Assembly (NCBI GenBank): GCA_964187785.1
Contig: OZ076409.1
Coordinates: forward strand, 21,764,001-21,828,000
DNA from: Amphiscolops sp. MND2022
Taxonomy: Eukaryota
Reading direction: 5' to 3'
DNA: 64,000 nt
The number at the start of each line of letters is the position of its first letter. Position 1 is the first letter of the stretch. Positions 6,781-59,045 of the stretch are shown here, one piece after another. A program made the position numbers and the translations under genes. The notes beneath the pieces were generated by a model. It saw only the letters and a program-made list of their open reading frames with translations, did no database searches and was not told the origin of the DNA.

Positions 6781-7321
6781 TTTAGTACTCAACTGTTTCG
6801 TTTAGTGAATGGCATGAGACTTTACTGGAATTTAAAGATGATAACATAGACTGCAATGCATCATTCTTTGCAACTGTTTTAACTGGAATGTGATCTTGAT
6901 AATTTATCTTGGTTGAAATGTCAACGATTCCGGATGACTGGTCGACAACCAATTCGTCGACCAAACTAATTGGACGACTGTTCGACACATTTGTCGACCA
7001 ATCGTTCAAAACTGAAACTTATGTTAAGCGGCAAATTATAGGCGTGAAACGTCCAAATTCGAAAAGTTAATATTTTTGAGCTTTTTGGGGGGTACCATTC
7101 CCAGCACTAAAAAATTGAAGGTAGTGCGAATCCTAAAAGAACTATTTAAGCTTCGTTCGAGGGAACCATTCCCACCACTAAAAACTAGCTTGAATGCAAC
7201 ACTTGAATTAACAGTATCAGTAGAAATATGGAATTGTTTTATTTCAGCATAACAGAAACTTGACAAAGCATTATCAAGATAGATGTAACCTAGAGTTAAT
7301 TGAAGGGGGAATATAACAAAG

Positions 7322-9439
7322 TGTTACGACTATTTATCGGGGTGATTTTTCGATTAGTCGCAGTGGTTTTATTTTTGATTGGTGTCGAAGTTGCATTTCC
7401 CGGGATATTTTCGGATTCAGAATCTGTTTCTTCAGTAGTAGCTATGACAGTTTGTTTTTTAACAGGAGCAGCTATTAGTTTTAACACCTCCTTTTGATTT
7501 TCAGCTAAGACTTTGGTAAGATCAGACATGATCTCTTTTCTTAGTGAAGACTTGATTTCCTCTAGATTTTCAGTGATTACTCTAGGAGATTTACTCGTCC
7601 CTGCTACGGGATTTAAGTTTTGGTTAGCCTCAGTTATTGGGGTCTCCATTTCGGTTGAAACTAGTTCTTCAACAGCTTTTCTCTTCTGGCTTCTAGTAGT
7701 CATTTTAGATAGAGTGAGAGAGTGATTATTCTTTGGGAAACTTGAATTCTTCAAAGAAATATGATTTTCAAAACGGAGTATTAACGGAGTAGATTAGGAA
7801 AACTGATTAAACAGATTTACAAATCCTTAGGTATATATACTTTCACAGCATCATTTGTTCCTCACCTAAAAATTCCTAGGAATCCTTAAAATCGGTTTTG
7901 TTCAACAAAAATGCTTAATCATCCTTATTATTTCAACCCTTTTATTAATTGTTCATGACTTAAAATTCCTAGTCACGGATCCCTTACGGAGTACTTGTTG
8001 AAATCATTTTTGTTCATTAACATCATTTCCGGTTTGATCGCGGAAAAAGGCGGCAAAACAAATGTCTAGTTGAAACTTCATCGCGGAAAGCACGCGGGCG
8101 TGAACGATGAATCACTTCACGAGCGGTAAACTTTCAGCTTGCGATAAAAGAAATGACAAGCGAAATTTGTTACGGAGATATCTCGGGCGAATTTTGGATT
8201 GATAAACTGTGATATTTGAGAAGGAACAAATGATGCTGGAAAAGTGATGAATACGAACTAAAAAACCTGCTTATTGTAAATCAGAAAACAACCAACAATA
8301 ATCTATCTAACTTTACATGAATTGAGTTAGTTAACACTGACAAATGCAACAATTAAATAGCATATACATGAAAGCAACGTTTCTACAACGTGATTAATAC
8401 ACAGAATATTCTCCTACAGAATAGGAAGAAGCACCCTTTCGTAAGGATTCACTTTTATCCTAATTAACAGCACGAACTTTTTAATCAATCACTAAAACGG
8501 AGAAAATCCGGGTGGAGAAAGTAAAACCTTATGATAATTTAAATAACTCAGAATGATTCTACATGACCTCAGGAACATCCTAATGTATTTGGATAGCTTC
8601 TGTGTTTTAGGATTTTCCACGCTTGTCTTACATGTATTAACATTAGGTATAATTTCATCGATTTACAATTTGCCCCGTAAACGCTCCGTACGTATTAAGA
8701 TTAGGTATAGCTTCTTCGCATTACAATTTGCTCCGTAAGCGCTCCGTACGTATTAAGATTAGGTATAGTTGAGCAGAGCTTGCTTGCGGAGATAGAGCGG
8801 ACAGCGTTAACAAATTCATTCTTATTCTTTCGCTCAATTGGCGTTGCTATGGTAACTAGGGATGGTGAAAGACGACGCTATTGGTCCGTAAAAATAGAAA
8901 CATCTACTTTTCAATCAAGCTTAGTGACGCTGCCATTACGTTGTAAATATTCTCTTAAGTTGTTTAACTGCATTCTTAAGTGGATATTCACAACTAATCA
9001 ATCATTGGAAAACAATTCCACCATTCTCTTTGTATGTTCTTTCATTTTAGATTGTATGCGTTCCGTTGGGATCACGGAATTAAATATTGTTTTAGTGTTT
9101 TCATTTTAGTGTGGAGAAAAGAAAAATTGATCCCAGTGTTAAGGATGTTTCCTTTTTAATATTTAGATTGGCATGGAATTTTCATCAGTCGGAACCGGAA
9201 GTGATGAAACGATTGCATGTGAAATCATTAAACCGGAAATTTTCTTTTTGTCTAAATCATTTTTGAATAATTTACGTTGCGCTTCCGTTAAACTTAATTC
9301 GTGCTGCTGTTTGGATAAAAGGTAAGGCATTAAATAGAGTTTACTTAATGTTGTGTAGCTCTGCCGTATCCTTTTCCTCGCGTGAATTGCGGAATTCCTC
9401 CACAGCAAGTGAAATCCCGACCGGGAGCGGGTCGTGACA
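7322..9439 (-). repeat. 3' LTR of element A
   Basis: Direct repeat of 20854-22971; about 11 substitutions and no indels seen by eye. Confidence 0.97.
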
Positions 9440-10079
9440 GGGCGCCTCTATAGCCTGTTGACCACGGTCTGGGGCAGTGGGGAATCTCTCTGGTGATCAA
9501 TACTGGTTGTTTTCGTGCTCTTGCCAGTTTTGTAGAAGTATAGCGCGTTCCCCGACCGCACAACGGGCTGTTTTCTCGGCTGCTTTGTAGATCTATGCCA
9601 TAGGCGTTTTCGATTTCTTCTACTGCTGGCTCCATCAAGTCGTCGAGTTTGTCGGCTTTTGCAGGCGATCCATTTTACTGAAGCTCTTTGTTAGACACGT
9701 CTCGTAATACTGGGGCGGGCTGCAGCGGCGGTAGTTGACGGGGAGTATCCGGCTCTTCAAAGTAGCTTTCTTCAGACGTTTCAGTACTATGCCCTTCCAC
9801 TATGAAAGCTTCGCCAGGGCTTGTAGTGCCGAGGTTTATTTTTCTCGGTGAACCGATAGTCTCAAATGTAGACGCTGAGATGCCGGATAAATTTAGACTA
9901 TTGATAGAGTCCATCATCTCTTCTGCGCTGCCTTTTGTGGCTTCTAAGGAGGCTTCAGAAAGATCCAGTGTTGTTATCACATTAAGCGGGAGTATTTTGA
10001 TCGGGGTGCTCTGTCTTACGTTGCTACCCCGTTCTTCTTCGTCGGAGGAGATATCGATAACTAAGTCGTAGTTATTCAT
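9345..10079 (-). CDS. Accessory sense ORF3 of element A: acidic, Ser/Thr-rich protein of ~244 codons with one in-frame TAA (9675-9677), ending inside the 3' LTR
   Basis: ORFs 9675-10181 and 9345-9638 share a frame and are separated by a single stop. ATG at 10079 gives MNNYDLVIDISSDEEE. A positional counterpart exists in element B. Confidence 0.55.
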
Positions 10080-10169
10080 TTTAAGTTTTCTGATTATTGC
10101 AAGCTGTCTTATCTTTACGTTTAGAATGCGGCAAGTGAAGAGGTTAACTTTCTTCCGTTCGTGATTTTC

Positions 10170-10400
10170 CTGCATTCTCATTGGCTGTTATTTTCCTTTT
10201 TATATCAATTCGTTTCATCTTCGGAAAGCGTTTCACTTCCATCTGCGTTGTGATTGGCTGAACCATAGGAATAAAAATGTTAAAGTTTGAACTTCGTCGT
10301 GACGTCACTAATTTCTTCCCGGTGATGTTCCGTGTGACGTCACAGACTTGAACTGACTCTTTCTTCCTCTTTATGATCTCAAACTAATTTGGACCATTTT
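10170..10400. promoter_or_regulatory. Putative internal bidirectional promoter with two CRE/ATF palindromes and two CCAAT boxes
   Basis: GTGACGTCAC at 10299-10308 and 10334-10343; ATTGGCTG at 10180 and 10253; lies between the divergent starts of ORF3 (10079, -) and the antisense gene (10516, +). Confidence 0.55.
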
Positions 10401-10515
10401 TCGTCCTTTATGGAAACTATGAGCTTGCAACGATGGTGTATTTGGATTAATTTTGGGTAATGTATTTTCTTTGTTTCAGACTGTTCTGAAGATTCTTTAC
10501 GTGGTAACTTCTCAA

Positions 10516-13500
10516 ATGGATGGAGAAAGTGTGCCTCCTACTGTACCTGCCGGCGGCTTCCTTAGTGGAAACGAGACAGTGTTTAATTACACTGATGATG
10601 ACGTTCATCCTGAACCGGCATTTGTTCGTTCTGTTCCAGGTTGGTAAAAATCTTTTCTGACTTCCATGGGTAATTGGACTATTTGTTTTTGGTGATCAGC
10701 CTTTGGAGTCCTACCCGCAACTCTGACGCGTCGAACCAGATCTTGATTTTTCAGTAACTCAACCTGTCAGTTCATCAGTGGCTGTTATTTCTTCTGGTGC
10801 AGTTTCCGAGGTAGTTCCGTCTGCATCAAGCCTTTTGCCCTCGGTTTCTACCATACTTTCTACTGCGCCAATCTCTTCTCTGCATGAGGCTCTAGTTGGT
10901 CTCTCGAGTACTGTTCCGCCCAATGTGTCTTCAGCTGCTGCTCCTCCTAATTCTCCTGTGGTTCCTTCTGCTGTCGGGGAGGCTTCGGGAGTTCAGGCGT
11001 TACCTGTGCGTTTTCGCGCTGTGCAGGCCGAAGACAGTGACAGTGAGTCTCAAGGAGGTGAGACCGATCCGCCGCCCGGGGAAGAAACGAGTTAGTAGAT
11101 TTGAATTTGTTGTATTAGTAGCGTGTTGGGTTTTGTTTTCGTCGAGTTTTCGGAGTGTGATATGCGTATTTTGTTAGCTCCCAAAACGAGTGGTTCTCGC
11201 AAGAAGGTGGGTTTTGGGACTTTGCCCAAGCGTGCTAAGAAGCCGTTGCCTCCTCCTCCTCCACTGACACCCGCTCCAGGAGGTTGGACTAGTAAGTTCT
11301 TGTTGGTTGTGCTTGTTTCTTTTGTTTCTTCTGTGTTTTTTTTTGTTGACATATAGTACTGTTCAGTTGTACTGTATTTCTTGATTGTGTAGGTCTAGAC
11401 GATCCGGAGGTGGCACATATCCTTGGCACTGGTTTGAGTCCGGACGTTGTTCGTGAAGTTGGTCGTCAGGTCGCCGATCATGTGGAGAGTCATCTACAGA
11501 CTGGTGGGTTATTTGGTGTTTTGTCTGTAGCTAGGTGTTTGTGTTGTATTTCGTATCGGTAGTGGTCCGTGTTCGTTGTAACCATAGTAAACTTTGGTTT
11601 GCGTGTTTTCATAGGTCTTGACGAGTTTGCTGATAGGGTGGGCAGTCGGCTGAGTGCGCGTGGCAAAGGAAAGAAATACAGTAGTCGGAATGTGTTGCAT
11701 CGACGAATGTTGAGCCTCCATCCTGCTTTTCCTCATTTCGTTAGTGGCGCGAAGAATGGCAAAGGCACACATTTTCACTGTCGTGTGTGTAAACGGGACG
11801 TGGGCATGAGAGCACAAGGTTCTGGAGAGTTTGCGCGACATTTTCAATCTGATGGCCACTGGTTTAAAGACGTGACGTATCGCGTGCACATGGGCCTGCC
11901 TGTTCTCAATAGGCTCATGGAGCCTATGGAGTTGTCTGACAGTCAGCTGGCCGAATACCGTTCGAAAGCATTTGAGGATTTGAGTGAAGGCTATCCTTTT
12001 CCTGAGGATTTGCTGCCGAAGCACTCCCGCGTGGAGTCGAAAGTCCCTTTCATGACACTGGTGGGTTGTGTCTGTGAGCTTTTGCGTAGTGGTGGCGATT
12101 TTGTGCTTTTGCGCCATCTTTGGAGCCACTTCTTGTTGACACTACCGAAGGAGAGGGGACCACAGTTTAATCTCAACTGGAGTCGTTCCGAGACTCTGGT
12201 GAGTATGTTTTTGCTTGTTTTATAGTTTTTGGCACTCTGTATAATACTCGTATGTGGCCGTTTTTATTGCTTCCTCTTTTTTTTTGTATTAAGTAGGTAA
12301 AGGTATGGGACGTTTTGAGTGTTATCCGTTTTAGGCGTTTCTGTGCCAAGGCTTGGCTCCGCGGGTGTTGCGCCTTATGCTGAGTAGTGTTTCTGGCTTT
12401 CGTGCGTATGGATTGCAGTACGAGAAAGAGAACGATGTGGAGCGATGCTACGTGTTATACTGGAATGACAAGCATTTGATGAAGATTTGTATCGGGTGTG
12501 AATCGTTGGATCAGGCCATGCCACTTCCAGAGTTAGTGCCCTTGTCCCGCATTGTGTGCAGTTTGGGTTCAACTTTGTTGCCCATTGCGATTCTCGGGGG
12601 GAGTCCGTCATTGCTTCGTGTGTTAGAGAATGACCGTTCTGATGCTCGCCGTTTCGTCATATATGAGAAGTTTGATGAGGAGGTGTTTCTGCGATGTGTG
12701 CAGCAGGCAGATCAGGACATTTTCGGGATGGTGAACGTGATAACGTTAGTGGACTATCTGTTGCAGCGTCTGAAAAGTGCTTTGTATGAGGCCTGGACAG
12801 AGGGCAAGGTGGTACTACGCAAGTGTATCCGGCAAGGGTCCGTTGATTTTATGGATTATCGTCAGCTGTTGACCGAATTTATTGAGCTGTGGTCTTGCAT
12901 ACGTCCTTTCATTCGCTGTACTGGGCACCCGGGGGCGAAAGGAAAAGCTGACAGTGTTAGTCAAATTTATTGTTTTTATGTGTTCTCGATTTGTGTGCTT
13001 TTTCCCCCTTTTTCTCAGTAAATTTGTAACGTATGGATGATGGTTGGTTGTAGATGAAGGGGACAGACTGGCACATAATCGCTGACAATATGACACCTTA
13101 TCGTTTCGGGCTGTTACGATTGGTGTTAGATACATGTGAGTATGGCCTGGTTGATCGGTTTTGTAGTTTGTGGATGCTTGTTTGATTGGTTCTTTCTGTT
13201 GCCGGATTGATGTCGCGAATTGAGCTTAATTTCATTGTTGATCGTTTCCTGTTGTTTCAGTTCACATCAATTTCACGAAGCTTCATCAGGGGCGTGAAGA
13301 CTACGCCTTTCACGGCTATGGTGAGCTGTGTGATTTTATCTACTGCCTTTTGCTGAAAACCCGGGCTACAGAGAGTCTGCCTAGTCTGAACGATTGGGAC
13401 GGGTTCATGGACGAAGAGAAGGTCGCTGCTTTTCCTTCCATTGCTGACGATGTGTTTTTGGCAAATTGCGATTTTGGCCGGGAGTTGCTCGCGGGCAAAA

Positions 13501-14456
13501 CTAGTGAGTTTCCGACTTTCCGTATTCGATGCCGAGAGTTTATGGATCAGCTAGTCAGTATTATCTTGAAAAGTCCAAGTGCCTCATCGCGTGTGTCACG
13601 GGGTATTTATAGCTTTTGTCCTGAGCTATTGCTGGAGGGTGATAGTCAGCTTGTTTTCCAGTTGTTTCCGGACCTATGCCGTGTTCTAGAGTCATGTGGC
13701 TGTCTGTCTTCAGATGATTCTAAGGCTGCAGTTGAAGAATTTAGCAGTTATGTGGTGGAGAAGCGAAATCAGCACGAACGGTCCATGGGAGTGGCCAGTG
13801 AGATTCCCAACATGGTCGATTGGCTGCTACGAGATTTCAGTTTCTTAGCTCGACATCGCGTCTGCCGCGTTTGGAAGCTATGTGTATTGGTGACTGGAAG
13901 ACCTCGCGCAGTTTATCCGGCTGTGAATTTTGACCTTAGCGGTAGCAAGTTGAGTATAGCCAAGTTCCAAGAGTGTCTACATTTAGTTCAGAGCTACGTG
14001 TTGAGTCCGGGGTATGAGCACCAGTCTTTCTTCACTGAGCCTACTATGGAAGCTGTGCAGGATGCTATCAGTAATGCTGGCGTATTCTATGTTGCTCAGA
14101 ATTTTGATTTGTGGGCCGATTTTTGTGGGGGGAGTGTGTCAGATTTCATCTCCCAATATAGTCGTTTGTATGATGCCTTTTTGTTGGCACAGCGGAAATC
14201 ATATGAGATTCAGTATGTGGAAAAGAATAAAGCGAACCGGCTTGCTCGTGCTCAACAGATGTCAACAAGTGCTTTTGCTGTCGGCGCTGATGCTTCGGGT
14301 TCTGGGAAGAACAAGGTGGGAGGTCAGCGGTCTACGTCAGGGTCAACAACGAGCAGCAATAAAGAGGCTAGAAGTGGTTTTGTGGTGTCAAAAACCAAGA
14401 AAAAATTGTCAAAAAATGATGATCCTGATGTTCGGCATAGGATAAAGAAGATTTGA
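10516..14456 (+). CDS. Spliced antisense gene in element A, ~1055 aa, BED-like zinc finger plus hAT-transposase-like body; exons 10516-10639, 10755-11090, 11178-11291, 11393-11503, 11615-12198, 12335-12955, 13054-13135, 13261-14456
   Basis: Seven GT-AG introns of 87-136 nt with T-rich acceptors join the exons into one stop-free 3168-nt frame. Zinc finger HFHCRVCK...FARHFQSDGHW at ~11770-11862. Homologous to the 32354-36510 gene. The first three introns are less certain than the last four. Confidence 0.8.
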
Positions 14457-14615
14457 ACTTTGTTATTGATGTGAACTGGTGAACTTAGTCTTGTTTTTCT
14501 TCTTTTCTTTGCCAAGATCCTTTATTTTATGTTGCTTTAGTTAGTTGATTATTCTAATGAAAAGAAAAATTGACGTTGCCATTCCGGTTCGGTTTGGTTC
14601 TCTGATCGTTTTTAT

Positions 14616-17600
14616 TCAGTTTTGAGGTTGAGAATTCTCTTCCGCAGTGATTGCGTCCAGCATCCGAAAATCAGGATGTGCATTAGGTCTAGGATTAGGT
14701 CGTAGGTTATATCTTCCCGTTTTTCTAGGATTGTATCCGACAACTATAGGCGGCAATGTAGGCGGTATTGGGGGACTTTCTGTAGGCGGCGGGGTCATTA
14801 TGAAAGGGTTATCACTGACGTCTAAGTTGAATGACGTGTTATCTCCGGAGGATGTTTTATCCATCATTGTATTCTCATCTGCAGTTGTTGTAACTGCTTC
14901 GTGGTCCGTTGTATCTCCGTCTTCAGTTTGTACTTCCGTGATAGTAGCTTCTTCATTGTCGTTTTCCGTTGGGGTTCCGAACAGAACTTCTCCGAATTCG
15001 GTTTCCCAAGCTTGCGCGTACCAATCATCGTGGGTTGTTTTAACCTCGGGATCTGGAAGCTGATCTTCCACTTTGACTGTTACGTCAGGTACTCGCTGAT
15101 TGGGCGCGTATAGCCTTAGGCGAATTCTATGGAGGGTTTGCGTATATCTTGTTCCCGTCCGTCTTACGACGTAATTGTTATTGGAAAGGACTTTGACCAC
15201 TATATATGGTCCTGTCCAAATGCAATCTTTGAAAGCGAATTTCATTGACTGGTTATCAGCCTTCGGGTTCAGGACGTAGCAATAGTCATTGATTTTCAAT
15301 GGCGTTGCTGTCGCTTTTTTATCATAATATCGCTTATACTTCAAATATGATTGCATGAGGTTGTCCTTGGCTGACTGGTGGATTTCAGCGATTTGCTTTT
15401 GTAATTCGTCCGTTAGGTCTTCGTTAGCGTCTTTTTTCCATTCTGGCTTGAGTCCCAGCTTGATATCCAGAATGTTGTACGGAATGCGTCCGTGAAATAC
15501 GGTTGTTGGTTCGCATCCTAGGCTTTCGTGGTAACTAGTGTTGTAGTTCATTACTGCAATTTGTACGTATTTGTGCCACATTGAACGGCGTTCTCCCGTT
15601 GATATCTTGAGGGAAGTCTTTAGAGATGCATGCGTTCTTTCGAGTATGCCGATTGTTTGTGCATGCTTTGTTGACGCGTGGCTAATCCGTATGTCCAGTG
15701 TTTGTGCTATTTGGTTCACGACATCTGATCGGAATTGTGATCCTTTATCAGTCAGAATCACTGTAGGCAGATAACAGTGACGTGTCATAACGTCAATTAT
15801 GCATCGTCCGACTGTTCTAGCAGTCATGTCTTGAGTGGGGTATGCGAACAAATAACGGGAGAAAACGTCCATCATGGTTATGATGTGTTTGTAGCCGTTT
15901 GATGAGGGTAGATTGGGTAGAATATCGACTTCTAGACAATCTTCTGGTCCGAATGTGAATTCTGTATTACTCAGCATTTTAGGACGTATTTGGCGCGTGT
16001 CGATTCGTTTGTTGGCTATGCAATCTGGGCAGTTGATTACCCAGGCTCTAATTTTCCGCGCTAGTCCCGGATAGTAATACTTTGCTCGGCTTTCCTGAAT
16101 CATTTTGGTTATTCCTGGGTGTTTGTTCATTTTTCCATGTAGCGTCGATAGGAGTTCTGGTACTATATGTTTCGGTATGAGGATTTGGTGATGTGTTACT
16201 GTGCCATCTTCTCCGTAGTATTTACGCATGAGTACTCCGTCTTTGACTATTATTCTTTCTTCGTGACGTAGTAGGTTTCGTCCTCTGGGTTCGGTCTTGA
16301 GAAGGTGTTTGTCGTATTCTTCGTGAAGCAGCCGTAGTTTCAATGCTTTCAATATCGGGTCCGCATCCTGTTCGTTGCGGATGCGGGCGTTTTCCTTGAT
16401 GGCTCCAAAGGCGTATACTGCTGAGTTGAGAGGTATGTGCACTGTTTCTGTGACTTCCGTTGTCAAGTTTTGTTGTTCCTTTTCGTCTATTGCTCGTTGT
16501 TTGCTAAGGGCTTTCCTGGCGAAAATTTCTTGTTCTGATTCCTCTTCTTCGTCTGGCAGGAAAAAGAGTTGTTCTCCGTCCGCAACATCTGTAGACTGTC
16601 GGTTAACCTCGATAGGTGCCGTTATGATGTCGTCTCGCAATTTGAGCTGGATTCTCTCTTTTGGAGTTAATTCGAGGCGAGACAGGAAGTCGGCTGCTGT
16701 ATTTTGCGAGCCAGCTACGTGCATGATGCGGAATTTGAACTGGAGTACGTAGTCACAGGCATTCCAGAGAGCGGGTGGCGTTGTTTTCGTCTGGAAAAAT
16801 CTCGTTACTGATCTGTTGTCTGTCAGTACTAGTGTAGGTAGTGTTGTTTCCCAGAGAATGTGACTATATTCAAGGAATGCGTGATATATTGCGAGGAATT
16901 CTTTACAGTATATCGACATCTTCAGTTGTGACGGCGAGAATACGCGGGAACCAAAAGCGACCGGTGCGAAAGTTTTCCGTTTGGAGAGTAGCTTTTTGTC
17001 GTCGTTTTCTTCTATCATTAGGGCGTAACCTGATGCCCGGAAGCTTGCGTCCGTCATTAGTACGTATTGTTTTCCCGCAACTGGTTGTCTGAGGGCTAGC
17101 CCACATGCTTCCGCTAGGCTTGCGTTGATGGCTTTGAAGTTGTCGACTAATTCTTCTGATATGGTGATTTTGGCATCTGCTTTTAGGAGTTCGTACATTC
17201 CAATCATTTTTTCGGACAGTCTTGGTATGTAGTTTCTGTAGTAGTTGATGAATCCAATGTATTTCTGGACTTGTTTCTTTGACCGGGGAAATCTGATTTT
17301 TGACAAGAAGCTGGTGATTTTGTGTTCTTGCGGTGCTACTCCGTGGGGTGTGATGGTTCTTCCTAGGAATTCAATTTGGGTGACACCAAAGTGGCATTTT
17401 TCAATTGTGAGTTTTAGTCCTGCCTTGCGGATGCATTTGAAGACTGCTCTGATGTTCTTAATGAGTTGTTCCGTTGTGTTGGCGGCGATTCCGATGTCGT
17501 CCACATATTGGGCACACTGGTCTGCTTTGATGACGGTGTCAAGGTATTCCCGCATGAAGCTCGAAAAGGCTGACAAGGCTCTACTAAGGCCTTGGGCTAG

Positions 17601-19832
17601 CCTACGATAGGCAAACGTTCTACTAGCAAAATTAAATGCAAGGAGTTCTACTGACCTTTGATCTGCCATTTGGAGGCAGTGATAGGCTTGTGAGCAATCT
17701 AGTTTGCAGAACAGTTGCTTCCCCGCTAGGTGTTGTGCGGCATCTGAGAGGGTGCTGATGGGGTGGTTGTTGTTTATGTAGTCATCTGAGATGAGGGCGT
17801 TGATCTTCCGTAAGTCTACTAGGAGCCGTAGTTTTCCGTTGGGTTTGCGTTGCGCGAAGATGGGGCTGGCATATTTCGAGAATGGGAGGGTTGTGATGAT
17901 CCCGTATTTGTGCATCAGTGCCAGTTCTACTGTGAGATCGTCTTTGAGGTTGATGGGTACGGGGAGGCTTTGTGTATATACCGGTTTGTCGTTTTTGGGA
18001 GTTAGGCATACCTTGAACTGGTTGTTCATTCCGATGTCCAGTCGGTGACGTGCAAAAATGTCATTGAATTCGACTAGGGTGGACTCTAAGTTTTCACGGT
18101 CTTCTCCCGTTATTAGTGAATCATTCCATTTGAATAGCGAGAGGAATTGTGTTCTAGATTTTTCGTCTTGTTTGGGGTCCAGTTCTTCTAGTCTTTGTAG
18201 TTCACGTAGTTCTCGTAGAATGCGTTGTTGGATGGGTGTGTGTTCCGATTCATCTCCGGGATTTTCGGGAGTTGGGAACCAGAATTTCTCTTCTGTTTGT
18301 TCTGACGAATCAACTTGCATCAGTGCATTAACGTACGCAACAACATCGTCGTGTTCGGTGAGTAGATTGAGGGCTGCTATGTCTACTGCTCGTATCAATT
18401 TCGTTTCTTCGGGTTTCAGTATTTGTAATTCTGCTAGTTTCGTATGTGGCGTTACTGTATAGGGGAAGTCTGTGGTGTTCGCTATTTTAATCGCGACTCG
18501 TTTGTCTCGGGCTGTTGTTATTGCTGGGGCTACTATGAGTTTTGCATTTTCGTCGAACTGTGGTAAAGGTTGGACTGTCCCAGTTATTGAGTGGTCATTG
18601 CTTGTGGTGATGGAGGCGTGGATGATCCGTGTGGCTTGGGCTGGTATGGTGTGTTTTTCTTCCGTTTTGATAGTGATGGGTTTGGGGTTGCACTTTTGTC
18701 TTTCATCTTTTAGGGCTAGAGTGATTTGTATTTTAGGAAAGTCTATGGTTCCTTGTGCAGTATCTAGGATTGCGGAATGTTTCCGGAGGAATGCCAGGCC
18801 AATGATTGGGTAAGATGTTTTGGTCATGATGATGAAAGTCTCCTCGAACGCGTAATCCCCGATTTTGAATTGCATTGTGTATGTTGCACGGGCTTTTTCG
18901 AGTTCTGTGTTGGCATATTGTATCTTGAAAGGGGGCGGAGGTGCTTTCGCGATTATGGTTGCGTTGGCTTCAGTTTGTATCTTGTCTGCATCTCTTTCAC
19001 TGATGACGTTGATGTAGGCTCCCGAGTCGACTAATGCATCAATTCTAGTGTTTTCAAAGTCGAGAGGAATAGAGAGCATTCTTTTCTTCTTTTTGAGGGT
19101 AATTGCCGACATTAACGGAATGTAGTCGTCGTCTTTATCATGTTGTATGAATTCTTTTATGATGTTGAGATCGTATGGCAGTTGTTGTGGGCATTCCGTT
19201 ACTTCGTCGTCTTCATGATTGTTGTTCTGATTTGGCAATTCAGATGCTGTTGTTGGGGGTGATACTATTTGATCGGCTACTCCGCGTTGTTCTTTTGCTT
19301 GTTGTGACCATATTGTTTTATCCTCAATGCAGATAATATTCTCTGCATCTATTGGTGTGTACGTGGTGGTGACGGGTGTTGGCGAGGATTGTGTTGTCTT
19401 TTTTAGGATTGGTGACGAAGGTGTTGGTAGGGTTGTACTCTCGGTGACTTGAGCTTGAGGATTTGAAACTTGGATCTTAAAAGAGAGTTTGTTTGTGTCA
19501 TAGATGGCTGGTTCATCCCAGGGATCACATCTATAGTCTTTATCATATATGTAAATGCGTTCGGTCTTTGATTCTGGTAAGGGTCTTTTTAGTGTCGCGT
19601 AGTTATCGGGCGATTCTGTTATCCATTGGGGTAGTGGTGTTGGGTCTTCTGGGTGTCGTGCATTGTGTCTAAGTATCATGCCTACGTTCCAACGACGTTG
19701 CCAGTCCTGTGTCGGTTCTTCGTTGCATTCCGTCATGAAGTCTTCTTCGTAGTGATTGGGGGGGTCTTCTATTGTGTACGCCCTCGCGTCTACCGTTTCC
19801 CCGAAGCGGAGGCGCGGCGTTTTCAGTTTTTT
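14616..19832 (-). CDS. pol: Pol polyprotein of element A (protease, dUTPase-like spacer, RT, RNase H, integrase), probably expressed by -1 frameshift from gag
   Basis: 1706-aa ORF, open upstream to the slippery site; ALVDSGA, LPFSKYASPIF, YVDDI, MTDAS, HPGITK...CPDC, DILP...TDKGSQF...LERTH, WTGPY; Gypsy domain order. Confidence 0.97.
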   Translation of the reverse strand, partial: KKLKTPRLRFGETVDARAYTIEDPPNHYEEDFMTECNEEPTQDWQRRWNVGMILRHNARHPEDPTPLPQWITESPDNYATLKRPLPESKTERIYIYDKDYRCDPWDEPAIYDTNKLSFKIQVSNPQAQVTESTTLPTPSSPILKKTTQSSPTPVTTTYTPIDAENIICIEDKTIWSQQAKEQRGVADQIVSPPTTASELPNQNNNHEDDEVTECPQQLPYDLNIIKEFIQHDKDDDYIPLMSAITLKKKKRMLSIPLDFENTRIDALVDSGAYINVISERDADKIQTEANATIIAKAPPPPFKIQYANTELEKARATYTMQFKIGDYAFEETFIIMTKTSYPIIGLAFLRKHSAILDTAQGTIDFPKIQITLALKDERQKCNPKPITIKTEEKHTIPAQATRIIHASITTSNDHSITGTVQPLPQFDENAKLIVAPAITTARDKRVAIKIANTTDFPYTVTPHTKLAELQILKPEETKLIRAVDIAALNLLTEHDDVVAYVNALMQVDSSEQTEEKFWFPTPENPGDESEHTPIQQRILRELRELQRLEELDPKQDEKSRTQFLSLFKWNDSLITGEDRENLESTLVEFNDIFARHRLDIGMNNQFKVCLTPKNDKPVYTQSLPVPINLKDDLTVELALMHKYGIITTLPFSKYASPIFAQRKPNGKLRLLVDLRKINALISDDYINNNHPISTLSDAAQHLAGKQLFCKLDCSQAYHCLQMADQRSVELLAFNFASRTFAYRRLAQGLSRALSAFSSFMREYLDTVIKADQCAQYVDDIGIAANTTEQLIKNIRAVFKCIRKAGLKLTIEKCHFGVTQIEFLGRTITPHGVAPQEHKITSFLSKIRFPRSKKQVQKYIGFINYYRNYIPRLSEKMIGMYELLKADAKITISEELVDNFKAINASLAEACGLALRQPVAGKQYVLMTDASFRASGYALMIEENDDKKLLSKRKTFAPVAFGSRVFSPSQLKMSIYCKEFLAIYHAFLEYSHILWETTLPTLVLTDNRSVTRFFQTKTTPPALWNACDYVLQFKFRIMHVAGSQNTAADFLSRLELTPKERIQLKLRDDIITAPIEVNRQSTDVADGEQLFFLPDEEEESEQEIFARKALSKQRAIDEKEQQNLTTEVTETVHIPLNSAVYAFGAIKENARIRNEQDADPILKALKLRLLHEEYDKHLLKTEPRGRNLLRHEERIIVKDGVLMRKYYGEDGTVTHHQILIPKHIVPELLSTLHGKMNKHPGITKMIQESRAKYYYPGLARKIRAWVINCPDCIANKRIDTRQIRPKMLSNTEFTFGPEDCLEVDILPNLPSSNGYKHIITMMDVFSRYLFAYPTQDMTARTVGRCIIDVMTRHCYLPTVILTDKGSQFRSDVVNQIAQTLDIRISHASTKHAQTIGILERTHASLKTSLKISTGERRSMWHKYVQIAVMNYNTSYHESLGCEPTTVFHGRIPYNILDIKLGLKPEWKKDANEDLTDELQKQIAEIHQSAKDNLMQSYLKYKRYYDKKATATPLKINDYCYVLNPKADNQSMKFAFKDCIWTGPYIVVKVLSNNNYVVRRTGTRYTQTLHRIRLRLYAPNQRVPDVTVKVEDQLPDPEVKTTHDDWYAQAWETEFGEVLFGTPTENDNEEATITEVQTEDGDTTDHEAVTTTADENTMMDKTSSGDNTSFNLDVSDNPFIMTPPPTESPPIPPTLPPIVVGYNPRKTGRYNLRPNPRPNAHPDFRMLDAITAEENSQPQN
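19780..19832 (-). promoter_or_regulatory. Putative -1 ribosomal frameshift signal (A AAA AAC plus downstream stem-loop)
   Basis: gag ends CCA AAA AAC TGA; pol is in the -1 frame; ACGCC...GGCGT and inner CCG/CGG pairing follow a few nt downstream. Confidence 0.75.
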
Positions 19833-21235
19833 GGCTGGATTTCAACAGTGGGGATTGGTTGTTCACTGATTTGGCTGGTAGGGATTGTGAATTCATGACG
19901 TTTCTTCCTGGGGTCATTCGCCGCGTTAGCTCCGTACCAGCAGTTCTCGGTTTTGTGGAGCTTTCCGCAAGTGTCGCACTTTGATTTGGGTGGTTCAATG
20001 GTGTTGGGGGCGGCGTTCCGTGCTTTAGTTTCGTAGTAACGATCTTTTCGTAATTTGCGGCATTGTGCTTTATAATGCCCCTGTTTGCCACAGTGAAAGC
20101 AACTTCCTCGTTGGGTGAGTTCCTTTTTTGGTTCCGGTGGGACGACGTCGACCGTATTTAGTGGTACTAGTGTGGTTTCGTCTGGGGCTCCCAGGCCATT
20201 AAGGCGCATCTCTCGTTCGAGATGTAGGACAATATCATTATAGGGTTTGTCCTCGAGGTAGGCTCGGTTGAGGATCTTTTTGACGTGGTCTGGCACTTTG
20301 GCGTATATGGCCTTGTCTATAAATTTTTGTGCTTCAGAGCCGAACGCTTCTTTAGCCGTTTTTTGTAGTGTATCCAAAAATTCATGTAATTTTTGTTTGG
20401 TTGGGTCAAAATGTAGCGAGTTCCATTCGCATCTCGCTTTGGCAGAAGATTGAAAGTCTCCGAAGCGCCGTTTAAACGCCGTAATTACCTCCTCTAAGTT
20501 ATCTTTTTTGGCATCGTCTAAGTTGCAATATGCTTGTAGTGCATTGCCTCGTAGTAGTGAGTGGAAGTAGTTGATTTTTTGGATTTCTGTTAGATGTGGG
20601 TACATTTTTATGTTGTTCCGGAATAAGTCCTCGAAAAGTTCGAATTTTTCTGACTTACCATCGAATACAGGCAATGATGCAGTGAGTGCTTTGGGCATTG
20701 GGGGTAGGTGGGGCGGCTGGTGTATTTCTGGTTGGGGAGCGAAGAGTAGTCGTGATGTCGAAGGACGTTCGTTGGGTGGCAGGCTTTGTGGACGGTGCGG
20801 TCGTGTTTTCTTCTTTCCGAGGTTCGTTGAGTCATTGAGGACTCCTGTCACCATGTTACGACTATTTATCGGGGTGATTTTTTGATTAGTCGCAGTGGTT
20901 TTCTTTTTGATTGGTGTCGAAGTTGCATTTCCCGGGATATTTTCGGATTCAGAATCTGTTTCTTCAGTAGTAGCTATGACAGTTTGTTTTTTAACAGGAG
21001 CAGCTATTAGTTTTAACACCTCCTTTTGATTTTCAGCTAAGACTTTGGTAAGATCAGACATGATCTCTTTTCTTAGTGAAGACTTGATTTCCTCTAGATT
21101 TTCAGTGATTACTCTAGGAGATTTACTCGTCCCTGCTACGGGATTTAAGTTTTGGTTAGCCTCAGTTATTGGGGTCTCCATTTCGGTTGAAACTAGTTCT
21201 TCAACAGCTTTTCTCTTCTGGCTTCTAGTAGTCAT
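19823..21235 (-). CDS. gag: Gag of element A with zinc knuckles; begins inside the 5' LTR
   Basis: MTTRSQKRK start at 21235; LPVFDGKSEKFELFEDLF capsid-like region; CFHCGKQGHYKAQC and CDTCGKLHKTENC. Confidence 0.92.
   Translation of the reverse strand: MTTRSQKRKAVEELVSTEMETPITEANQNLNPVAGTSKSPRVITENLEEIKSSLRKEIMSDLTKVLAENQKEVLKLIAAPVKKQTVIATTEETDSESENIPGNATSTPIKKKTTATNQKITPINSRNMVTGVLNDSTNLGKKKTRPHRPQSLPPNERPSTSRLLFAPQPEIHQPPHLPPMPKALTASLPVFDGKSEKFELFEDLFRNNIKMYPHLTEIQKINYFHSLLRGNALQAYCNLDDAKKDNLEEVITAFKRRFGDFQSSAKARCEWNSLHFDPTKQKLHEFLDTLQKTAKEAFGSEAQKFIDKAIYAKVPDHVKKILNRAYLEDKPYNDIVLHLEREMRLNGLGAPDETTLVPLNTVDVVPPEPKKELTQRGSCFHCGKQGHYKAQCRKLRKDRYYETKARNAAPNTIEPPKSKCDTCGKLHKTENCWYGANAANDPRKKRHEFTIPTSQISEQPIPTVEIQPKN
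20841..20853 (-). promoter_or_regulatory. Primer binding site TGGTGACAGGAGT (possibly tRNA-Leu-like)
   Basis: Directly follows the CA end of the 5' LTR and begins with TGG. It resembles the complement of tRNA-Leu 3' ends (from memory, TGGTGTCAGGAGT) with one mismatch. Confidence 0.75.
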
Positions 21236-22971
21236 TTTAGATAGAGTGAGAGAGTGATTATTCTTTGGGAATTTTGAATTCTTCAAAGAAATATGATTTT
21301 CAAAACGAAGTATTAACGGAGTAGATTAGGAAAACTGATTAAACAGATTTACAAATCCTTAGGTATATATACTTTCACAGCATCATTTGTTCCTCACCTA
21401 AAAATTCCTAGGAATCCTTAAAATCGGTTTTGTTCAACAAAAATGCTTAATCATCCTTATTATTTCAACCCTTTTATTAATTGTTCATGACTTAAAATTC
21501 CTAGTCACGGATCCCTTACGGAGTACTTGTTGAAATCATTTTTGTTCATTAACATCATTTCCGGTTTGATCGCGGAAAAAGGCGGCAAAACAAATGTCTA
21601 GTTGAAACTTCATCGCGGAAAGCACGCGGGCGTGAACGATGAATCACTTCACGAGCGGTAAACTTTCAGCTTGCGATAAAAGAAATGACAAGCGAAATTT
21701 GTTACGGAGATATCTCGGGCGAATTTTGGATTGATAAACTGTGATATTTGAGAAGGAACAAATGATGCTGGAAAAGTGATGAATACGAACTAAAAAACCT
21801 GATTATTGTAAATCAGAAAACAACCAACAATAATCTATCTAACTTTACATGAATTGAGTTAGTTAACACTGACAAATGCAACAATTAAATAGCATATACA
21901 TGAAAGCAACGTTTCTACAACGTGATTAATACACAGAATATTCTCCTACAGAATAGGAAGAAGCACCCTTTCGTAAGGATTCACTTTTATCCTAATTAAC
22001 AGCACGAACTTTTTAATCAATCACTAAAACGGAGAAAATCCGGGTGGAGAAAGTAAAACCTTATGATAATTTAAATAACTCAGAATGATTCTACATGACC
22101 TCAGGAACATCCTAATGTATTTGGATAGCTTCTGTGTTTTAGGATTTTCCACGCTTGTCTTACATGTATTAACATTAGGTATAACTTCATCGATTTACAA
22201 TTTGCCCCGTAAACGCTCCGTACGTATTAAGATTAGGTATAGCTTCTTCGCATTACAATTTGCTCCGTAAGCGCTCCGTACGTATTAAGATTAGGTATAG
22301 TTGAGCAGAGCTTGCTTGCGGAGATAGAGCGGACAGCGTTAACAAATTCATTCTTATTCTTTCGCTCAATTGGCGTTGCTATGGTAACTAGGGATGGTGA
22401 AAGACGACGCTATTGGTCCGTAAAAATAGAAACATCTACTTTTCAATCAAGCTTAGTGACGCTGCCATTACGTTGTAAATATTCTCTTAAGTTGTTAAAC
22501 TGCATTCTTAAGTGGATATTCACAACTAATCAATCATTGGAAAACAATTCCACCATTCTCTTTGTATGTTCTTTCATTTTAGATTGTATGCGTTCCGTTG
22601 GGATCACGGAATTAAATATTGTTTTAGTGTTTTCATTTTAGTGTGGAGAAAAGAAAAATTGATCCCAGTGTTAAGGATGTTTCCTTTTTAATATTTAGAT
22701 TGGCATGGAATTTTCATCAGTCGGAACCGGAAGTGATGAAACGATTGCATGTGAAATCATTAAACCGGAAATTTTCTTTTTGTCTAAATCATTTTTGAAT
22801 AATTTACGTTGCTCTTTCGTTAAACTTAATTCGTGCTGCTGTTTGGATAAAAGGTAAGGCATTAAATAGAGTTTACTTAATGTTGTGTAGCTCTGCCGTG
22901 TCCTTTTCCTCGCGTGAATTGCGGAATTCCTCCACAGCAAGTGAAATCCCGACCGGGAGCGGGTCGTGACA
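20854..22971 (-). repeat. 5' LTR of element A
   Basis: Direct repeat of 7322-9439, followed by the PBS on the minus strand. Confidence 0.97.
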
Positions 22972-23013
22972 CAAAGGTAACACAAAAGTATCAAAATAAT
23001 AGGACCGAATTCT

Positions 23014-28439: not shown

Positions 28440-28829
28440 GGAGTGGATACGACTAAAAAGTCGACCAGAAGTGGTGCCAATTCTTTAAATCTTTGAGGGA
28501 GAACAGAAAAGTGTAATTGATCGTATCCCTTGGAGCTGGTATTATCGCATTTCCCAACCATAGCTTCAATGTCGGAGAAATACATGTGAGGTGATCAAGG
28601 ACAACTGTAGGCTTGAATCTTACTTTTTCCAAATTACGAATTGCTTCTTTTCGGTAAAGACAAAACTGAGGAAGGACTCGATAGCATTGAAAATTGCGTC
28701 ATCGTTATTGACTTTGTGGTTGTTATGGCACAATACCGAAGGAAAGAAAGGAGTTTTGAAAACCCAGGTTTCGGAGAAGGGAAGCTTTTGGTCGGCAATG
28801 ACAAATCAGAACTATCTATGAAGGCTTAA
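28440..28829 (-). pseudogene. LINE ORF2 fragment flanking element B
   Basis: Minus-strand translations PSVLCHNNHKVNNDDAIFNAIESFLSFVF and SDIEAMVGKCDNTSSKGYDQL resemble the pre-RT region of CR1-like LINEs. Confidence 0.5.
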
Positions 28830-30654
28830 TGTCATGTACAAAATGACTAGATAAGTCACCATTTTGGTGACCTTCGCCCTGTTCACTTCTCGAATTGTTT
28901 CTAGCATTTTGATTACGCTGTACTTCGGGATTAATTTCCGGTCTCTCAGCCGAAACATCCCATCCTTTTCTAGTCACACGTCCTGAACCGGCGAAAATGA
29001 CGTTTGGATTTGGGGCAATACCTGATTGCTTATAGCGTCATTTATGGCTCTCTGGATCTGAACACTGACAGAATTCATCATCTCATCCATTTCTCTGGAT
29101 ATCCTAGAGTTTAGTTCACTGGACAGTTTATTGATCTCAGCTTGAGAACTCACGTCCGCTGAATTTTGTCCATTAACGATGTTTGCCCTGACATTAGAAT
29201 TCATATGATTAGAGTATGAACTACCACCTTCATTTTCTAGATTATTCCTCATAACACTATCATGTCTTCTGACGGAAGCACTATCTAAGCTCTCATCCCT
29301 TTCAGTTTCATTGAAATGATTCTCACCTACCATGATGTCAAGGTTCTCAATATCTGAAAGGGATTCTAAGCCTTTTGATTTCGTTGGTTTCTTTTGCTTT
29401 CTTGTGGTAGGCATTGAGAAAAGTCCGAAATAAACAATGAATTACCCAACTCCGAAAACAACAGTGGAACCGTTTGTAGAACAACATTTACTAGGTACGT
29501 TAAATATGATTTGTGTCCCACTCAGGCTAAACACCGGTATTTATACCCCTGAGTAGATGACACTCACATTTTCCACATATTTCTAGTCAAGATTGATATC
29601 ATAAGGTTTGTAATGCACATGACATTTTCCCAAGTCTTTACATATCCTGGGAATATCAGACAACATTTTGAAAGGTATTTAACTCATACCGCAACTTCAA
29701 ACAACATATTTAACAAAACATCATTATTAAGGTGTCAACAAATGTTAATATGCAACAATGGAATTTGGCGCACTCAACTTCATAGAACGGTGTCGGCACG
29801 TGCCGCCACATGAGTGGGGTTGAGTTCGCTAGAGAATGAAAACACATGCAAAGTCTTATGGATACTTCAAAACAATACTATTTACTATAATAGCGTAAAA
29901 TACAACGTTTTCATAATAGGGCCGGAATTGGCCAAATCCAAATTATTAGATGAGCATCGGAAGAAAAGGGGTAAAATGCCTTCTTCGTCCATTAATGAAA
30001 TATCAGCCTCATTAAGTCATCAGAACAGCACAAGGGCGATTATTTGGTACTAAGATCACAGCTAAAGTAGCGCCGGTTGATTGCAGTCACAATTAGAATA
30101 GCAACATCGTGTTTATTTGAAATGGCCGTAATCGGCAATTTGACCAAAGCGTAGAATAAAATATTTACCTTGAGTCAATTGGCCTTACTCGGCCACTACT
30201 ATATTGAAGCCGCGCTAGTACACCAAAATGAAGCAACATGATTGGTTGGAATGTTGAGCTCAAGTGACGTTTCCGGAATTAGAGTTGGGGTCACTTGAAC
30301 TCGTTTCCCAATTGCCTTGCAGTTAATTCTTTTCAGCTTTACCTTGACTTTATCGTTACAGCACAATGAATAGCAAAATCACGTTAACAGACTAATGCGA
30401 AACAATTAAACTAAAATCTAAACAAACCAGGATTTACTTGATTGAAACGTCTGTCGTAATATTGAAATGTGGGATTAGTTCCCAATAAGCCCATCTCTCC
30501 GTTTAATTTACAAAAGCATTGTATCTAAAGATAAAGCAACATAAAAGTTCATGGAGTTTTAATTCCTTGTATATGGGTAACGTACCGGGTGCTACTTTTT
30601 ATCCGCTTGCCGTTGTAGTTATTTTAGTACCGTCACAGGCGGCAGCCTGCGACA
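28830..30654 (-). repeat. 3' LTR of element B
   Basis: Direct repeat of 43188-44985 with many substitutions and several indels. Confidence 0.93.
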
Positions 30655-31340
30655 CAGCGGTTGCTATAAAAAGTAGACTGCCTGCATTAAGTCCGTTTGT
30701 GTACGCTTCCTTTCTGAGTGCAGAGATATACGCCGGCTCACTCCATGGCGTTGATAGTTCCATATGCCTCTCTATCTTCTGAGCCTTGATCTCGTCAACT
30801 GATTTCCCACACACCATGCAACTGGTGCACCTTTGAGTGCTAATATCCGCATAGTGTAGTGAGCCTTGTATATGGTAAGACGCATGAAATCCACTACTCT
30901 CGACTTGCAATAAGGGTGTGTCTTGAGAAGGTCCCCTCTCATGAGAAGGGGGTGACATAGGTGATTCTGCAACTGGTAGAATTGTCTTGCTTAATTCGAT
31001 CCTCCTTTTCACATTGCCTCTTGGTGGCGCGTAACAGAGTTTTTCATCAAAGTAGGCTTTGTCCAATTTAGGCGTAATCTGCATTTCAGAGGACGAAGTA
31101 CTAGTGCCCGGTTCGTCAGTTGCGGTTGTCATTCTCCTTCCCGCTATTGGTTTAGGGCAGGCCTTCACTTGTGTATCCACCCTCTCTATCATTTCCTCAG
31201 TGTCCGTTGACCAGTCTGAATCCCATCCATCGAAGCTTCTTCGTCACTACTTATGTAGATCACTGAATCGGCTGAAGATTCTGAGCTGAAGTCTATGGAA
31301 CCAAAAAGTTTCCTCACTCTGTTGAATTTATTCATGATGA
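30599..31340 (-). pseudogene. Accessory sense ORF3 of element B (acidic, frameshifted), ending inside the 3' LTR
   Basis: 197-aa ORF 30599-31192 crosses the LTR boundary at 30654; upstream frameshifted part reads DSVIYISSDEEAS; contains CMVC. Confidence 0.55.
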
Positions 31341-35300: not shown

Positions 35301-36510
35301 TGAGCGAATGTAAGTACTACACTTTAGGTAACAGCCCATTGTTTTATTCCACTTCAGGCATTGATTTGCGTTTTCACACGTGGCCAGTTTTCCTGTGAAA
35401 CTCCAGCACAGACGTGATGCCTCCATTTACCTTTGTGGAGACGTCTGCCAGTTCATAAGCCTGCTCTGTTCCCGTATTTACACTCCTGATACGGCTCCTC
35501 TGGCTAACGCCTGGTTCTTGCTATTACGTTTTCAGACTAGTGAGGCCAGTTTACTGGGCGAAGAGGAGTATTTGGTGCGCCTGGAGCTCACCAACAAAGT
35601 GTCGTCGGCAAGCAAAGCAAAGGCGGAAGGAATGCACTTTGGTAAGAAGTCAGAGCGCCCAGCGATCCTGGCAACCACTGAGACTGTGAAGTCTGGCTTC
35701 ATCAAAGACAGCCAGCAGTATGTCCAGTATCTGATCAATGAAGTCCTCCGACAGACTGGAGTCACTACAAACATCGTGAAAGGGATAGCTAATTTCGATC
35801 CTTTCATCTTGTTCAAGCGCCCTATGGACGTGGCCCTACGCCACTTTACCATTTTGTACAGCACCTTCTCCCTCCGTTCTTGGGTTTCTATGCCAATGAA
35901 TCCTTGTGCCGGGATCAATACATGCAACTACTTGACCACCTGCGTACAGCCTATGGCCTTAGTTTTGATATAACCAGTGTCTCTGGTGATTTAATTGAGT
36001 TTTTGTCCGAGCTGGAGTTCCTCCGAGACCGAAGTTGTTTCGTTTACCTCTTCAAATTGTGCTGCCTGTGTGCTACTTCCGTTAATCCAACATACCCTGA
36101 TGTCACTTTTGGGACAGTTTCCACCGCCGGGCGTCAGAGTAGATTGACTGACGTCATTCTTCCCTGTCAGAGTTACATAGCCAACGTGCGAGACTCAGTG
36201 GCTTTCTGTAGTGATGATGGCAACCTTGCTGAGTTCATCGACCTCGCTTCTTCTTTTGGGCGATCTGCATTTGCTCCTGATTATGATCCCTGGACCTACA
36301 TGGACATTTTCGGCTGTTCAAAAATCTATAAGTCGTTGTTGGCTTCCTATCTGGTAGCTCTTTCCACCCCTCAAAAGACTCCAATCCGAACTGTACCTGG
36401 AGATACAAGTTCTGTGGCCGATATGTCTGCCGTGGAAGCACCGTAGTGCTTCTCGTTCATCCTCGTCGTCTGCCATTGAGGTTACTGACCCTGGTTCATC
36501 TTAAGACTAA
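32354..36510 (+). pseudogene. Decayed antisense spliced gene of element B, homologous to 10516-14456
   Basis: Low-complexity N-terminus; zinc finger remnant CHI(G)KKNFYIKSKGPYEILRHHWTDRH at ~33878-33958; introns at about 34340-34412, 34883-34979, 35114-35227 and 35310-35377; IVKGIANFDPF and YLFKLCCLC match VSRGIYSFCPE and RVWKLCVLV in A. Confidence 0.8.
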
Positions 36511-58500: not shown

Positions 58501-58819
58501 TTTCGTTCTTGAGAGATTCGAGGATGTCCAACAAGTTTCCATCCGACTGTACAGGGATGGATCCCGTAGCCGGGATTTTTTCAAATCGAGTTCCTGATTA
58601 CGTCGTGAAAATGAAAATTTTCTTCATTTTCAGTCTGTTGCGCAACGACAAGTTTTGCAGTTTCTTTTTGCGGTTGATGTTTGGATCGAATCAGTTTGCG
58701 CGAATATGCAATCTGTCACTGAGATCGAAACAAAATGGTCGAAGAAAATGAAATCGAATCAATGTTTTCTAATACTTAGTGGTTCCAAACAACGAAGTTT
58801 TTGGCCCTCAGTTATGCAC

Positions 58820-58995: not shown

Positions 58996-59045
58996 GGGGA
59001 AAAGTAACTAAATTAATTTAATTGCTTTGTAGGAACAAAAGTCTC

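Follow-up and report, generated by a model that had tools for sequence, protein, structure and literature searches.

The window analysed here is a stretch of 64,000 bp from the genome of Amphiscolops sp. MND2022 (assembly GCA_964187785.1, contig OZ076409.1, positions 21,764,001 to 21,828,000). The 1.07-Gb assembly gave 43 matches to the nuclear-receptor zinc finger, a family not known outside animals, and none to WRKY, which points to an animal host. A complete retrotransposon with long terminal repeats (LTRs) occupies 15,650 bp of its minus strand (7322–22971), and all reading frames of this copy are open. In the interval that separates pol from the element's 3' LTR, and antisense to pol, lies a predicted gene of eight exons and seven introns, which is the subject of this report and is probably a selected accessory gene of the element. 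A shorter second accessory open reading frame (ORF), designated ORFx, is placed head-to-head with the antisense gene and in sense orientation to pol. The features are listed in Table 1.

Structure of the element and its antisense gene

The element was assigned to the Ty3/Gypsy type because of the order of its pol domains, its gag ORF, its LTRs with TG..CA termini and its 5-bp target-site duplication. Pfam analysis of pol located an aspartic protease (residues 254–360), RVT_1 (665–830), RT_RNaseH (924–1030), Integrase_H2C2 (1222–1278) and rve (1299–1391). The integrase thus follows the reverse transcriptase (RT), giving the order PR-RT-RNaseH-IN by which Ty3/Gypsy elements are recognised, as they also are by two LTRs with TG..CA ends and a short duplication of the target site. 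The atlas neighbours of pol were Gypsy-type polyproteins. One of the two domains matched by gag, DUF1759, is common in BEL/Pao elements. The gag ORF runs into the beginning of pol in the -1 frame, and the arrangement of the frames points to a frameshift. The two LTRs differ at 11 of 2118 positions, and the element appears to be young.

Joining of the eight exons gave 3168 nt, corresponding to 1055 codons and a TGA stop codon, with no internal stop. The predicted start codon at 10516 has the context tcaaATGG, with A at -3 and G at +4, and is the first in-frame ATG downstream of an in-frame stop at 10420. A preliminary description of this DNA had proposed a Gypsy retrotransposon with an intact antisense gene, in which seven GT-AG introns join eight exons into a stop-free frame of about 1055 codons, tail-to-tail with pol and with 159 bp between the two stop codons. 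The joined exons reproduced these coordinates exactly and the frame was open through all of them; the distance to the pol stop was confirmed (14457–14615), and the Gypsy identity was borne out by the pol, gag, LTR and target-site features given above.

The exon–intron model exceeds a chance fit, with intron positions conserved, because the GT..AG borders are kept across copies, the exon lengths are steady, and database similarity to exon 6 ends at the splice sites. When the introns were projected by pairwise alignment onto 20 other genomic copies, GT..AG was retained at 114 of 140 intron instances, some of the misses being alignment slips or deletions. In the 12 copies whose exon identity is only 45–78%, it was retained at 60 of 84 instances. 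Exon lengths were near-constant across copies and conserved modulo 3, while intron lengths drifted. In database ORFs related to exon 6, the similarity stopped exactly at the acceptor and donor splice sites. Exon identity exceeded intron identity in all 20 copy comparisons (for example, 0.64 vs 0.50 and 0.93 vs 0.84).

A perfect 14-nt inverted repeat (13258–13271/14465–14478) was also observed; its two arms flank exon 8, one at the intron-7 acceptor and the other immediately past the stop codon. By a rough estimate, about 0.05 pairs of such 14-nt repeats would be expected by chance in the stretch.

The predicted protein begins with an acidic region (residues 1–228) that has a high content of Ser, Pro and Val and includes RKK and KRAKK clusters, and it ends with a basic tail. 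Its single zinc finger (Cx2Cx16Hx5H; C284, C287, H304, H310) is conserved across gene types. Of 9 other intact copies, 8 retain all four zinc ligands; a distant homologue in the second LTR element of the window also has C284 and H310. The protein was folded exon by exon. Exon 8 gave a confident all-alpha domain, with a predicted local distance difference test (pLDDT) score above 87 at residues ~668–868, followed by one long helix; exon 6 folded alone gave a poor model (pLDDT 60). No convincing membrane segment was found in the 1055 residues. Pfam scans of the window pieces of the gene and of 55 and 36 family members gave no match, with PMD, Transposase_28 and bZIP all absent. Sequence and profile searches of the PDB gave no usable match, and Foldseek, VIA-align and BFVD gave no fold match above noise. 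The large, mostly helical body belongs to no recognisable family.

Table 1. Positions of the features in the window
Feature	Position	Strand	Remarks
Target-site duplication CAAAG	7317–7321 (left), 22972–22976 (right)		Identical 5 bases at both ends of the element
3' LTR (element orientation)	7322–9439	-	2118 bp, TG..CA ends
ORFx, second accessory ORF	9678–10187	-	170 aa stop to stop; conserved core from near Met36
Promoter-like region between ORFx and antisense gene	10180–10345		CCAAT/CRE-type motifs
Exon 1	10516–10639	+	ATG at 10516; ATG retained in 19 of 20 other loci
Conserved non-coding element	10637–10767		Intron 1 and first 13 nt of exon 2; best-conserved segment of the unit
Exon 2	10755–11090	+	By exon joining
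Exon 3	11178–11291	+	By exon joining
Exon 4	11393–11503	+	By exon joining
Exon 5	11615–12198	+	Contains the CCHH zinc finger
Exon 6	12335–12955	+	36 database homologues
Exon 7	13054–13135	+	By exon joining
Exon 8	13261–14456	+	397 codons plus stop; predicted all-alpha domain, one long helix, basic disordered tail
Introns 1–4	10640–10754, 11091–11177, 11292–11392, 11504–11614	+	GT..AG, pyrimidine-rich tract before AG
Introns 5–7	12199–12334, 12956–13053, 13136–13260	+	GT..AG, pyrimidine-rich tract before AG
Spacer between antisense-gene stop and pol stop	14457–14615		159 bp; AATGAA at 14556; right border of exchanged cassette
pol ORF, 1741 aa	14616–19841	-	Protease, RT, RNase H, integrase
gag ORF	19823–20851	-	DUF1759 and Retrotrans_gag matches
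Primer-binding site adjoining 5' LTR	20836–20853	-	Predicted from sequence; starts TGG in element orientation
5' LTR (element orientation)	20854–22971	-	2118-bp direct repeat, TG..CA ends
Degenerate distant homologue of antisense gene, second element	33878–36443	+	Between pol and 3' LTR, antisense to pol

Conservation and exchange of the antisense gene

A search of the genome with exon-8 DNA gave at least 40 scored places, of 190 candidates, with identities of 65–100%. Twenty loci were taken by their similarity to exon 8 (12 at 65–80%, 7 at 90–95% and 1 at 99%), and in each of the 20 pol lay tail-to-tail beside the antisense gene. A search with the 3' end of pol gave 2608 candidates, many of them near-identical pol copies outside the exon-8 list. 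Four loci were chosen by a 98–99% identical pol 3' end. All four carried a further gene type, the fourth, which was 48–65% identical at the amino acid level and matched the gene of the 7322–22971 element in location and exon blocks. Every one of the 24 other copies examined therefore had the antisense gene at the identical place and in the identical orientation.

The second LTR element of the window is older; its LTRs (28569–30655 and 42927–44986) are 94.5% identical, and its pol is broken into several frames that are 37–64% identical to the pol of the first element at the amino acid level. It carries the degenerate homologue of the antisense gene listed in Table 1. The homologue was detected by colinear tblastn matches to the zinc-finger region and exon 8 (E = 2e-7, 3e-4 and 0.009), and the exon-8 family profile matched ORFs of this element at 35793–36443 (7e-10) and 35365–35970 (5e-8). 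At the inner edge of the 3' LTR of the second element, an ORF on the minus strand (30602–31243) had a weak Spin-doc zinc-finger match (E = 8e-4), below the cut-off.

An antisense position between pol and the 3' LTR, here seen in the 24 copies and in the distant element, is one mark of the accessory genes known from plants as aORF-3R, in the sense of Vicient and Casacuberta. The antisense gene is judged, from these comparisons, to be an integral, long-standing part of the element family.

Conservation as a coding sequence, another mark of aORF-3R genes, was assessed by dN/dS, the ratio of nonsynonymous to synonymous substitution rates (NG86, with codons set by the reference frame). For residues 229–1055, 11 pairs had a dN/dS of 0.08–0.25, whilst the near-identical pair with locus L028 had 0.46; in 8 further pairs dS was saturated, with dN of 0.22–0.25. 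Residues 1–228 showed weaker constraint (0.23–0.70), and pol gave 0.05–0.10 in 19 of 20 pairs. These values indicate that the antisense gene is under purifying selection.

Strand composition was also compared. On the sense strand of the element, the antisense gene had a third-codon composition (A.37, C.30, G.18, T.15) resembling that of pol (A.39, C.31, G.15, T.16), and the introns of the gene had A.47. The sense strand was A+C-rich throughout 10001–20000 irrespective of coding direction, and the flanking host DNA had a symmetric strand composition. The silent-site skew shared with pol implies that the antisense gene has long been under the mutational regime of the element.

The preliminary description had called the gene a stable, selected accessory gene, and had proposed asking whether its homologues lie between pol and the 3' LTR and whether its exons evolve neutrally. 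Both parts of that reading stood: the homologues of this genome do lie there, as does that of the second element, and the dN/dS values and the higher identity of exons over introns speak for selection. Taken together, the claims on the identity of the gene and on its selection are very likely to be correct.

Database searches placed the antisense gene in a family of 444 clusters (E<=1e-3, 50%-identity protein library), all of them short, nameless single-exon ENA fragments. Among 235 database fragments, 15 matched loci retrieved from this genome at an identity of at least 95%, 6 of these exactly, and 120 were less than 50% identical to any retrieved locus. No longer protein relatives were found, the near searches returning nameless ENA fragments only, and the scan of metagenome contigs gave no relatives of the gene.

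At least four deeply divergent types of the antisense gene coexist in the genome, besides the very distant one of the second element. The histories of the gene and of its backbone differ. In comparison with locus L021, dS was 0.10 for the antisense gene and 0.40 for pol; in comparison with L012-L016, dS was saturated for the antisense gene and 0.38–0.51 for pol. The nearest LTRs (97%) and pol 3' ends (98–99%) belong to elements on contigs C5 and C8, and the fourth gene type is the one present in the C5 element, which lies on another chromosome. Alignment with this element showed 94–100% identity from the LTR to ~10250, 62–76% to ~10400, roughly 50% over the whole antisense transcription unit (DNA), 72–82% at 14560–14640 and 93–100% from 14640 onward, placing the borders of the cassette at ~10250–10400 and 14560–14640. 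Because the gene, pol and LTR histories disagree, the antisense coding unit has been swapped as a block between near-identical backbones. Template switching between co-packaged RNAs would be the obvious route.

The conserved non-coding element, which spans intron 1, was 80–95% identical across gene types, as against 31–75% for the other introns and 47–77% for the flanking exons. Rfam gave no match at E<=1 across 7300–23000, and the element gave no transfer RNA match. Covariation was weak on both strands (RNAalifold terms of -0.78 and +0.29 kcal/mol); an invariant 8-bp helix may pair the 5' splice site with the start of exon 2. The motifs of the element were not found in the second element of the window. 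A resemblance to the primer-binding site was considered and dropped, since the matching bases vary between types and the backbone does not.

On the plus strand of the promoter-like region, ATTGG (CCAAT boxes) occurs at 10180 and 10253, and the palindromic TGACGTCA at 10300 and 10335. On the minus strand, two AGCCAAT boxes and TATAAAA stand ahead of ORFx. In 18 of 20 other loci a full TGACGTCA precedes the ATG by 176–288 bp, and most of the 20 have paired ATTGG boxes ~73 bp apart. ORFx had protein-level matches in 20 other loci and matched no Pfam family. Its dN/dS was 0.08–0.28 in 10 diverged pairs with finite dS, values that are biased low since they are based on high-scoring segment pairs. 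It travels with the backbone lineage, not with the cassette. A promoter shared by ORFx and the antisense gene and working in both directions is a reasonable reading of these motifs.

Elsewhere in the window, a 392-aa open frame with a PHD finger (59939–61114, plus strand) lies amid dispersed repeats, and several segments that are 73–93% identical are shared within 51770–63818. A direct repeat of 658 bp (46828–47483/49486–50141, 96% identical) lies where the window is richest in AT (GC 0.30), and a run of 200 N at 54079–54278 is possibly an assembly gap.

Proposed action of the gene and alternative explanations

Overall, the locus is best explained as an animal Ty3/Gypsy-type element with a selected antisense accessory gene, a reading to which we give a probability of roughly three in four. 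RNA polymerase II would transcribe the antisense gene from a promoter of its own within the element, of the CCAAT/CRE type (CRE, cyclic AMP response element), at 10180–10345, which may also drive the sense-strand ORFx in the opposite direction; the motifs incline us towards such an internal promoter. The transcript would be spliced at the seven GT-AG introns and would probably end in the 159-bp spacer. The introns would outlast retrotransposition because they are present as the reverse complement on the genomic (sense) RNA and hence are not splice substrates. The 1055-aa product may enter the nucleus, bind nucleic acid through its zinc finger and act in trans on the life cycle of the element, through transcription, RNA fate or silencing. 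A nuclear, nucleic-acid-binding regulator of this sort, as proposed for plant antisense accessory proteins and for the HBZ protein of human T-cell leukaemia virus type 1 (HTLV-1), is suggested tentatively and by analogy.

Several points weigh against this reading. Most individual copies contain frameshifts or stops, as expected of dead insertions, and the selection signal therefore reflects their source lineages. The copies are related, so the counts of conserved motifs are not independent, and for the pairs that diverge most, the alignment of codons relies on DNA alignments made with MAFFT at ~64% identity. Transcription, start site, splicing, splice junctions and poly(A) site are predictions from the DNA. 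Neither AATAAA nor ATTAAA was found within ~950 nt past the antisense stop, where only AATGAA is present, and the presumed 5' untranslated region contains several out-of-frame ATGs. The searches gave the protein no relative of known function, so the suggested function is a best guess from one zinc finger, basic clusters and analogy.

The divergence of the gene types could be explained if the gene served in a conflict, either as a counter-defence against host silencing or as a type-specific determinant of self and non-self among competing elements. Balancing or frequency-dependent selection would then preserve the divergent types, and recombination would reshuffle them. The coexistence of at least four types in one genome agrees with this, as do cassettes only ~50% identical (DNA) within backbones that are 94–100% identical on both sides, and, pair for pair, a dN of the gene roughly sevenfold that of pol (0.22 vs 0.03). 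However, the overall dN/dS is well below 1, dS is saturated, which precludes a site-level test for positive selection, and ordinary template switching between related co-packaged RNAs also yields cassette exchange. We regard this explanation as doubtful. Equally speculative is a broader picture of a 'complex' animal Gypsy clade with an internal, possibly bidirectional RNA polymerase II promoter and two accessory genes, in which the antisense zinc-finger gene would be a swappable module, its divergent types maintained by conflict with the host or among elements, and the strongly conserved intron-1 element a cis signal common to all types.

Descent of the gene from a captured hAT-type DNA transposase, with a BED-like finger, a dead RNase H-like core, a helical insertion and a dimerisation helix, was also considered. 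The language-model neighbours of exon 8 include Dimer_Tnp_hAT (53% of members) and FAM200-GTF2IRD2-like clusters, with scores of 0.90–0.91, and the order of a finger, three strands with helices and a long helical region resembles the hAT architecture. But the atlas recognition value was low (1787), with 128–143 of 256 features shared, and the Pfam scans of window pieces and family members contained no hAT domain. Four full-length hAT transposases taken from this genome and compared by BLASTP gave no match, and hhalign against an alignment of its hAT transposases gave probabilities of 0.4%, 0.1% and 1.4%. Foldseek and VIA-align gave no Hermes-like match above noise, with the exons folded singly and a poor model for exon 6. 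DUF4371 had no match in the genome, and none of the 150 best-scored Dimer_Tnp_hAT matches lay at the antisense-gene copies examined. A hAT origin is thus improbable. The genome itself is rich in hAT sequences, with 2215 first-look candidates for the hAT dimerisation domain, several of them with open frames of 600–700 aa.

The unit might instead act mainly as RNA, the antisense transcript forming double-stranded RNA or precursors of small RNAs with the genomic RNA and the reading frame being secondary. Regulatory antisense transcripts are discussed for LTR elements (PMC7264820), and the most conserved piece of the unit, intron 1, is non-coding. Against this, a frame of 1055 codons has been kept with a dN/dS of 0.08–0.25 while synonymous change is saturated, the zinc ligands are conserved, exon lengths are conserved modulo 3 while introns drift, and the antisense transcription unit does not overlap gag-pol. 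This explanation is highly improbable. That the gene is a nested insertion, an alternative named in the preliminary description, or that a host gene or foreign transposon was recently transduced into this one copy, has nothing further in its favour than the general frequency of nested insertions and is scarcely credible, given the fixed place of the gene in all 24 other copies and the distant element, the absence of any terminal inverted repeats found bracketing the unit, and a silent-site composition that matches the element and not the host flanks.

Comparison with known antisense genes

Antisense accessory ORFs between pol and the 3' LTR have been described in the plant Tat/Retand/Grande elements and in the fungal Boty elements (PMC7264820, PMC4408406, PMC11963269). 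The plant aORF-3R examples are gene23 of maize Grande, rice RIRE2, Silene Retand and Phaseolus PvRetro13; their function is described as unknown, a nuclear or DNA-binding regulator is suspected, and for Grande gene23 the use of a promoter of its own has been reported (PMC7264820, PMC11963269, PMC4408406). The gene described here shares with the aORF-3R of the plant Tat lineage its place past pol and ahead of the 3' LTR, its orientation opposite to gag-pol and its presence in most copies. It differs in its animal host, its seven predicted introns and its 1055 residues, the word 'intron' being absent from the plant papers searched for it. Proteins of the plant elements contain PMD, Transposase_28 or SMC-like domains, and none of these was found in the protein encoded here.

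In fungi, the antisense gene brtn is found in Boty-like Gypsy elements from Botrytis and Sclerotinia (Zhao et al. 2011, as cited in PMC7264820). There too, a non-plant Gypsy element has a supplementary gene in antisense orientation, placed after pol and ahead of the 3' LTR. Compared with brtn, the present gene has an animal host and encodes a protein of ~1000 aa with a single CCHH finger.

To our knowledge, the nearest animal analogue is HBZ of HTLV-1. HBZ, which has related antisense genes in deltaretroviruses, is a spliced, protein-coding antisense gene at the 3' end that regulates the element; its product is a small bZIP protein, and the gene has one intron and is transcribed from the 3' LTR. 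The present gene is like HBZ in being an antisense gene near the 3' end of an animal retroelement, with splicing that is predicted here. The antisense promoter of HTLV is located in the 3' LTR (PMC7264820). Unlike HBZ, the present gene has seven introns and no bZIP match, and its promoter-like motifs are inside the element, ~750 bp from the LTR.

A further parallel concerns the promoter. Foamy viruses have an internal, unidirectional sense promoter that drives accessory genes near the 3' end. The putative second RNA polymerase II promoter of the present element resembles it in being internal, and would match it in an ORFx transcript running into the 3' LTR. Unlike the foamy-virus promoter, the putative promoter motifs here lie between two divergent reading frames.

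The preliminary description had regarded the gene as the best candidate for an undescribed system. That view was upheld in part. The kind of gene is already known from the plant and fungal elements above, whereas neither an animal case nor one with this many introns was found in print: the literature search returned no animal LTR retrotransposon with such an antisense gene, a result that reflects the extent of the search and is no proof of absence.

The 444 clusters of unnamed fragments suggest that such genes are overlooked by gene-callers and repeat-maskers. The locus also suggests that an intron-rich gene can ride a retroelement indefinitely, because its introns are in antisense orientation. 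For cis control, the intron-1 element and the CCAAT/CRE region are concrete candidates.

In relation to the known systems, the new points are the animal host, the seven predicted introns, the large orphan zinc-finger protein, the cassette exchange, the intron-1 element and the companion ORFx. Beside the plant and fungal elements, an animal family with many young copies provides a second, independent system for asking what antisense accessory genes do, with a large orphan protein on which purifying selection is clear, several coexisting gene types and sharply defined cassette borders.

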